Assembly: GCA_000165345.1 (NCBI GenBank)
Contig: CM000436.1
Coordinates: 928,001 to 992,000, forward strand
Reading direction: 5' to 3'
DNA length: 64,000 bases
Numbering within the stretch: position 1 is the first letter of the stretch; each line of letters opens with the position of its first letter. The notes under the pieces were generated by a model, which saw only the letters and a list, made by a program, of their open reading frames with translations, was not told where the DNA came from and did not search any database. Of this stretch, positions 58,733-59,923 are shown piece by piece. The translations under genes were made by a program, and so were the position numbers.

Positions 58733-59923
58733 TTATTGTATTTCAATATTAGGCTTCCACCATATTACATTAATACAAGCTAAAAGTAATTAGCATTCAC
58801 ATATATTTAAGGTGGTTAATGAACATACCTGAAGCAAAAAAGGCCTTTTTAGGGTTGAATGCAATGCATTTCGGTTGTCCAACATGACCAGTGAGATTAA
58901 CTATATGTTTTGCAGTAGTAGTTGACCAAATAGAGATAGTGGAATCCTGTAAACCATGGATTACGTACTGGGAATCACTTGAAAATACTGGCCTAGTTTC
59001 AGATTTTATTATATGGTCTAAATATAGAATAATAAATAACAGTAATATAATGAAATAGTTAAATGAGGCCATTATCCTCAATTAAATTAAGAACTTACTT
59101 GGAGATTTATTTACAGTTTTATATTCTTGGAATAGCTCTCCTCTGAATGAACTAATGGTGAAGATTTTTCCTAAATTGGTTTTAACTAATATAAGTCTGC
59201 CATCAGGACTGAATGTAATATGATCTATGTAATTTTTCTTTCCAATATGACTTGAAAGGTTAAAGGTATCAAAAGGAGAGTATGTTTTAGAATCATACAT
59301 AGTGATAATATGATCATCAGTTGCAACAGCAAAAGTTCGTCCTTCAGGGTCAAAAGCTGAGATTGGAGTTTTATTTTTTGTGGATTGAACTGCCAATGGG
59401 GTCTCAAGCTTAAAATTATATATAGATACTTTTGAATCATTTGTTGAAACAATGAATAAATCTTTGTTGGGATGCACAGAAATCCCATTATATGGCACGA
59501 CACTAAAAAGAGTTGAATAAAATGAATTAGAAATAATGATTTCCAAACATAAAGAAATATCTTAAATAAATTAACTTACCCAGATGAAAGTTTAGTAGCC
59601 CTAATATATCTATTTTCTTGAATATCCCATAGTCTGATAGTGGCATCACCATCTGTTTTGTTTGAAGCTACAAGGCATTGCTTGTTACTATGAGCGAATT
59701 TTATTGCATCCATACTATTCTTCCTAGAGTGGTGAATCCTGAAGATATCCCCAGAAGAAATGGTGTACACTCTTAATGTGTCGCTTTCACAAATGAGTAA
59801 TGAGTCGCCATCTTCACTCCAATCCATATTTGAAATAGGCGTGATCGCATCTTTAAATACACGGCATGCTTTAAATTTGGTAATCAAATCATCATTCAAA
59901 ACAGTTCTAGATTGTTCCAACAT
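58733..59923 (-). CDS. WDR82: WD40 protein WDR82/Swd2 (COMPASS/APT component), 4 exons: join(59923..59580, 59502..59099, 59017..58829, 58779..58733)
   Basis: The model fuses three ORF-track fragments (59576..59935, 59082..59546, 58797..59081) and adds a 15-codon terminal exon. Donors are GG|GTAAGT (59579), A|GTAAGT (59098) and G|GTATGT (58828). Acceptors are ctctttttAG (59504..59503), ttctatatttAG (59019..59018) and aattacttttAG (58781..58780). Introns are 77, 81 and 49 bp, with phases 2, 1, 1 consistent. ATG at 59923 (ORF start 59935 is TTG). The spliced C-terminus ..KKAFFASACINVIWWKPNIEIQ matches the WDR82 C-terminus (..[17 protein letters not shown]). Confidence 0.8.

Follow-up and report, generated by a model that had tools for sequence, protein, structure and literature searches.

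In a 64,000-nucleotide stretch of Cryptosporidium parvum DNA (positions 928,001 to 992,000 of contig CM000436.1, assembly GCA_000165345.1; hereafter called the window), three open reading frame (ORF) fragments on the minus strand raise the question whether they belong to one spliced gene and, if so, where this gene ends and what it encodes. An earlier note had joined the three fragments to an unlisted exon of 15 codons, yielding a single four-exon gene for a protein of the WDR82/Swd2 family. Judged from sequence comparison, the region very probably represents the C. parvum WDR82/Swd2 orthologue gene, located on the minus strand, interrupted by three short U2-type GT-AG introns and encoding a seven-bladed WD40 propeller of 327 aa.

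Exon-intron structure of the locus

The predicted gene comprises the following features, given in window coordinates in the direction of transcription:

59923..59580, minus strand: exon 1, 344 nt; ATG at 59923-59921; ends in phase 2; residues 1-114 plus 2 nt of Gly115
59579..59503, minus strand: intron 1, 77 nt; GTAAGT...CTTTTTAG; 18% GC
59502..59099, minus strand: exon 2, 404 nt; ends in phase 1
59098..59018, minus strand: intron 2, 81 nt; GTAAGT...TATATTTAG; 21% GC
59017..58829, minus strand: exon 3, 189 nt; phase 1 carried through
58828..58780, minus strand: intron 3, 49 nt; GTATGT...ACTTTTAG (end also given as GCTAATTACTTTTAG); 27% GC
58779..58733, minus strand: exon 4, 47 nt including TAA at 58735-58733; supplies (A)CINVIWWKPNIEIQ

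The spliced coding sequence amounts to 984 nt without an internal stop and specifies 327 aa, not the 320 aa given in the earlier note, with intron phases of 2, 1 and 1. The donors read GTAAGT, GTAAGT and GTATGT, the acceptors TTTTTAG, ATATTTAG and CTTTTAG are pyrimidine-rich, and the reading frame continues at each join. GC contents are 18-27% for the introns and 26-37% for the exons. Including the split Ala codon, the peptide contributed by exon 4 is ACINVIWWKPNIEIQ. The proposal that three ORF fragments and an unlisted 15-codon exon constitute one four-exon gene proved right in its coordinates, donors, acceptors, phases and exon-4 peptide. The accompanying statement that the stop codon of each fragment is part of a donor applies to fragment 1, whose in-frame TAA (59578-59576) lies inside GTAAGT, but not to fragments 2 and 3, whose stops (59084-59082 and 58799-58797) are found 14 and 29 nt downstream of the donor GT.

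This structure was compared over the orthologous loci of eight species, namely C. parvum, C. hominis, C. meleagridis, C. ubiquitum, C. canis, C. bovis, C. ryanae and C. serpentis. The gene order NAP, WDR82, MutS is the same in all eight, and so are the intron positions. Exon 1 (344 nt, with a conserved ATG) and exon 2 (404 nt) have the same length in every species, and exon 3 measures 186-192 nt. Each of the 24 introns begins with GT and ends with AG, intron 2 being of the form GTAAGT..AG throughout. Overall, the introns measure between 44 and 105 nt (intron 1, 59-105 nt; intron 2, 58-89 nt; intron 3, 44-85 nt), with all three classes modulo 3 represented. Against the distant species, identity with gaps counted is 27-52% in introns compared to 60-78% in exons, i.e. 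the introns diverge much faster. The variable sites are distributed over the first, second and third codon positions as 46/35/106 in exon 1, 70/53/122 in exon 2 and 2/0/5 in the eight codons of exon 4. By their boundaries, the reading frame and this evolutionary pattern, the three introns qualify as spliceosomal introns of the U2-type GT-AG class, and their removal from the mRNA is predicted.

The locus had also been taken as a sign that short GTAAGT introns (49-81 bp) are real and frequent in this genome. Short introns are indeed real in this genome, whereas their frequency was overstated, as about 10.8% of the genes contain introns and the window shows no excess of GTAAGT. The former figure comes from a cDNA- and RNA-seq-based reannotation of C. 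parvum, which counted 688 introns, on average 99 bp long and with a GC content of 22% (PMC4637869). Over-representation of GTAAGT as an intron marker was considered and rejected, since the hexamer occurs 29 times in the window and would be expected 25.1 ± 4.9 times. The window contains 29 ORFs of 150 aa or more that run without interruption and together cover 74% of it. Its right-hand end is locally intron-rich, with apparently two short introns in the NAP gene and maybe one in the gene that follows.

Upstream of the WDR82 gene, a gene of the NAP (nucleosome assembly protein) family at 60173-61031 on the minus strand apparently consists of three exons (61031-60982, 60856-60804 and 60756-60173) separated by introns of 125 nt (GTAATT...TCTTAG) and 47 nt (GTAAGT...ATTATTAG). 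Its product of 228 aa begins with MKKQKLDLETAETSNMGDKTNSDEKQELISKLEEVDTRLMELD; the public C. hominis models disagree on its length (229 vs 190 aa). Beyond it, the plus-strand region 61308-63122 holds two ORFs, 61308-62162 and 62451-63122, which appear of low complexity by eye, the second with a His/Ser-rich tail. A GTAAGT at 62148-62153 is placed at the very end of the first ORF (...SEVSFS*), which may possibly mark another short-intron gene, and more such sites occur nearby at 62038, 62348 and 63378. Downstream of the WDR82 gene, an uninterrupted ORF of 847 aa (55693-58236, minus strand) is located where the orthologous loci carry a gene of the MutS family (Pfam MutS_III/MutS_V).

The fourth exon and the third intron

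To score alternative gene ends, we used a WDR82 hidden Markov model (HMM) of 314 positions built from 90 family members outside Cryptosporidium. The spliced four-exon product reaches 189.8 bits in one domain spanning positions 3-312 of 314. When intron 3 is read through instead, the score is 174.9 bits and the alignment ends at profile position 300, so that exon 4 adds 15 bits. The three fragments on their own score 59.3, 68.3 and 39.6 bits, which sum to 167. A spliced protein aligning worse to WDR82 than the individual fragments had been named as an outcome that would speak against the gene; the opposite was found. Moreover, among 12 possible GT..AG joins at the last junction, the one proposed gives the highest score against the WDR82 profile (189.8 bits); the runner-up reaches 176.9 bits, with the median lying at 175.4 bits.

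Exon 4 reads AC[IV]N[VL]IWW in the correct phase in all eight species. Reading through intron 3 gives tails of 3-17 aa, which bear no resemblance to one another in distant species. In the AlphaFold model, the propeller ends with a beta-strand made up of residues 317-322 (VIWWKP), all of them encoded by exon 4 (mean pLDDT of about 96 for residues 311-320), and this strand sits where the final repeat has its 'WD' dipeptide. Profile score, alternative joins, conservation in eight species and the structural model all agree with the view, put forward in the earlier note, that exon 4 aligns with the conserved C-terminus of WDR82. The 47-nt exon 4 would accordingly be expected to contribute the final strand VIWWKP, which carries the ...FW.P motif of the family, and the last blade would be complete with it.

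The strongest alternative, although in our estimate a very unlikely one, is that the three-exon model is real, in which case intron 3 is kept and the protein ends with ...FFASGMFINHLKYM after 322 aa. Among the 15 members of the protein cluster, most deposited models are built in this way. In addition, the IOWA-ATCC reannotation, which states its introns to be 100% RNA-seq supported, does not contain intron 3 (PMC8744675). Introns 1 and 2 lie within its 322-aa model and are therefore covered by that statement, whereas intron 3 is left unspliced there. Against this reading, the read-through tails differ across species in both length and sequence, while exon 4 is kept in phase in all eight species despite a length of intron 3 that varies between 44 and 85 nt. 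The three-exon product also forfeits the 15 bits and the end of the profile described above, and in the AlphaFold model its last blade is left without the final strand. Furthermore, C. bovis, C. ryanae, chipmunk genotype I and two recent C. parvum annotations already include exon 4. The four-exon product thus remains the preferred reading, and the peptide that distinguishes it from the read-through form is AFFASACINVIWWK vs AFFASGMFINHLK.

Among the Logan and ENA members of the protein cluster, no spliced transcript contig with a 327-aa ORF was found; these members are unspliced ORF fragments of 138, 154 and 115 aa (Logan) and 115 aa (ENA). Some transcripts may retain intron 3, but the conservation of exon 4 speaks for the spliced form as the one that functions. 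A more far-reaching idea, to which we give little credence, is that intron 3 is a regulated retained intron whose splicing tunes WDR82 dosage. Such regulation could explain why the read-through form appears in an RNA-seq-guided annotation, and it would imply a 322-aa WDR82 that lacks the last propeller strand and is probably unstable.

Assignment to the WDR82/Swd2 family

A single-sequence search covering 5.8 billion proteins retrieved a Cryptosporidium cluster of 100% identity. The best matches outside this genus are proteins of 313 aa with E values from 1e-35 to 1e-28, followed, with a fall to 1e-19, by long generic WD40 proteins. A profile search gave 1125 matches, and the named non-Cryptosporidium proteins among the 120 listed are all WDR82, 'COMPASS component SWD2' or equivalent; the named relatives among these listed matches share 26-32% identity with the query over about 97% of its length. 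BLASTP of the spliced protein against WDR82, which had been suggested as a check, provides an end-to-end match to the representative of the vertebrate WDR82 cluster (29% identity, E of 1e-48, residues 9-325 on 3-312), in which FASACINVIWWKPNIE stands opposite a 16-residue WDR82 segment. Both this end-to-end alignment and the names of the relatives among the matches listed, all WDR82/Swd2, bear out the family originally assigned to the gene.

The C-terminus carries the family motif FNPK..(L/F)ASAC....FW.P, which takes the form FNPKKAFFASACINVIWWKP in the Cryptosporidium protein and has a counterpart of 20 residues in vertebrate WDR82. This motif is present only if exon 4 is spliced in. It is found in nearly all of 60 family C-termini, the exceptions being visibly truncated or divergent tails. 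Consistent with a size of about 310-340 aa for WDR82/Swd2, the protein consists of a single propeller of 327 aa with no other domains.

With a probability that we regard as marginally lower still than that of the three-exon model, the protein could be a generic WD40 propeller that merely resembles WDR82 and is not its orthologue. Identity to vertebrate WDR82 is indeed only 29%. Pfam, which holds no curated WDR82-specific model, returns WD40/propeller matches to many families, all well below the named-family cutoffs, the top one being the THOC3 propeller with 96 bits against a cutoff of 305. Likewise, a single-sequence search of the PDB yields mostly designed or generic WD40 proteins and WDR5. 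The AlphaFold model (pLDDT 92.5, pTM 0.90) is strand-rich throughout, and Foldseek against the PDB finds seven-bladed propellers at a TM of 0.80 with WDR5 and G-beta as top matches; as Foldseek sees only the generic WD40 fold, the structure confirms the fold and not the family. What decides against a generic propeller is the single end-to-end alignment at matching length, the presence of the family-specific motif FNPK..(F/L)ASAC....(F/W)W.P and the fact that the named relatives among the matches listed all belong to WDR82/Swd2. Generic WD40 controls, moreover, score far lower on the WDR82 HMM, with best domains of 26-95 bits that cover fragments only. In a profile search of the PDB, the best single-domain match is S. 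pombe SPAC824.04 (Swd22) with 179.6 bits over positions 13-322, compared to about 125 bits for WDR5. We therefore retain the assignment to WDR82/Swd2.

Deposited models and known WDR82/Swd2 proteins

The exact 327-aa product is already deposited at NCBI/GenBank as 'hypothetical protein CPHLJ_8g3960 [Cryptosporidium parvum]' and as CPCDC_8g3960, both identical in sequence to the spliced protein described here, and ELE39_000151 of chipmunk genotype I has the same four-exon structure. The locus tags suggest that the gene lies on chromosome 8. The four-exon model, the gene and its name are thus already public, and our finding rediscovers existing models. The CPHLJ annotation was partly transferred from that of IOWA-43IA8, which splices intron 3 (PMC12092579). 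A full-text literature search for cgd8_3960 found no mention of it.

Other deposited models differ from this structure in several ways. The 322-aa models of C. parvum IOWA-ATCC (QOY40162.1), C. hominis, C. meleagridis and C. tyzzeri share exons 1-3, read through intron 3 and end with ...FFASGMFI(N/H)HLK(Y/C)(M/I); one C. hominis record bears the name 'WD repeat-containing protein 82'. The C. ubiquitum model (316 aa) reads through intron 3 as well, and those of C. canis and C. serpentis are truncated, the former to 265 aa. In C. canis, C. serpentis, C. ubiquitum, C. hominis and C. meleagridis, the terminal exon is intact in the DNA and absent from the deposited model. The C. ryanae record (GCA_009792415.2, locus positions 1501-3942) is a chimera of 562 aa, in which the WDR82 gene is fused to the upstream NAP gene.

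The C. parvum Iowa II model EAZ51479.1 comprises 316 aa and is named 'RIKEN cDNA 9430077D24 gene', which we take to be an old clone name for mouse Wdr82. This model was considered and rejected, since it needs non-AG acceptors at introns 1 and 2 and deletes loops that are kept in all Cryptosporidium orthologues. Its score on the animal-dominated HMM, which exceeds that of the 322-aa model (181.5 vs 174.9 bits), is due to the deletion of these two lineage-specific loops.

Next to no probability attaches to the reading that each fragment is a small gene of its own or that they are remnants of a decayed pseudogene. Every fragment forms an ORF in which a start codon is possible, and the 2004 C. hominis TU502 annotation lists fragments separately, as proteins of 115 and 72 aa; yet the fragments are collinear pieces of one WDR82 alignment whose exon lengths and phases are conserved throughout the genus and whose codon positions in exons 1 and 2 vary in the pattern of purifying selection.

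The single four-exon gene is an ordinary housekeeping gene, and its biological significance is small. The value of the result lies in quality control. Many deposited models truncate or misjoin the gene and drop the last beta-strand of the propeller; affected are those of C. parvum IOWA-ATCC and Iowa II, C. hominis, C. meleagridis, C. tyzzeri, C. ubiquitum, C. canis and C. serpentis as well as the C. ryanae fusion. For modelling, C-terminal tagging and expression, the 327-aa form should be used. The case also shows very short terminal exons to be a systematic blind spot when this compact genome is annotated.

By homology, the Cryptosporidium protein is most likely a non-catalytic scaffold subunit, as WDR82/Swd2 is elsewhere. 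WDR82/Swd2 is also a subunit of the H3K4 methyltransferase complex Set1/COMPASS. In yeast, the CPF/APT phosphatase module contains Swd2 next to Glc7, Ref2, Pta1, Ssu72 and Pti1, and human WDR82 is a member of the PP1-PNUTS-Tox4 termination complex (PMC7614891). By analogy, we infer that Cryptosporidium WDR82 may reside in a Set1/COMPASS and/or PP1-PNUTS (APT/CPF phosphatase) complex. A literature search on Cryptosporidium and WDR82 returned no interaction data for any apicomplexan orthologue, and Cryptosporidium enters the above study only via a reference to CPSF3 (PMC7614891).

The closest known systems are WDR82 of animals, Swd2 of S. cerevisiae and Swd2 and Swd22 of S. pombe (PDB 9scd chain D, SPAC824.04), all of which represent the same stand-alone seven-bladed propeller of about 313-340 aa. 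With these, the Cryptosporidium protein shares an alignment that is collinear from end to end as well as the C-terminal motif. It differs from them in two short, lineage-specific loop insertions, i.e. VV at 116-117 and about 5 residues around 250-255, and in the end of the motif, which is WW in the Cryptosporidium protein and FW in WDR82/Swd2.
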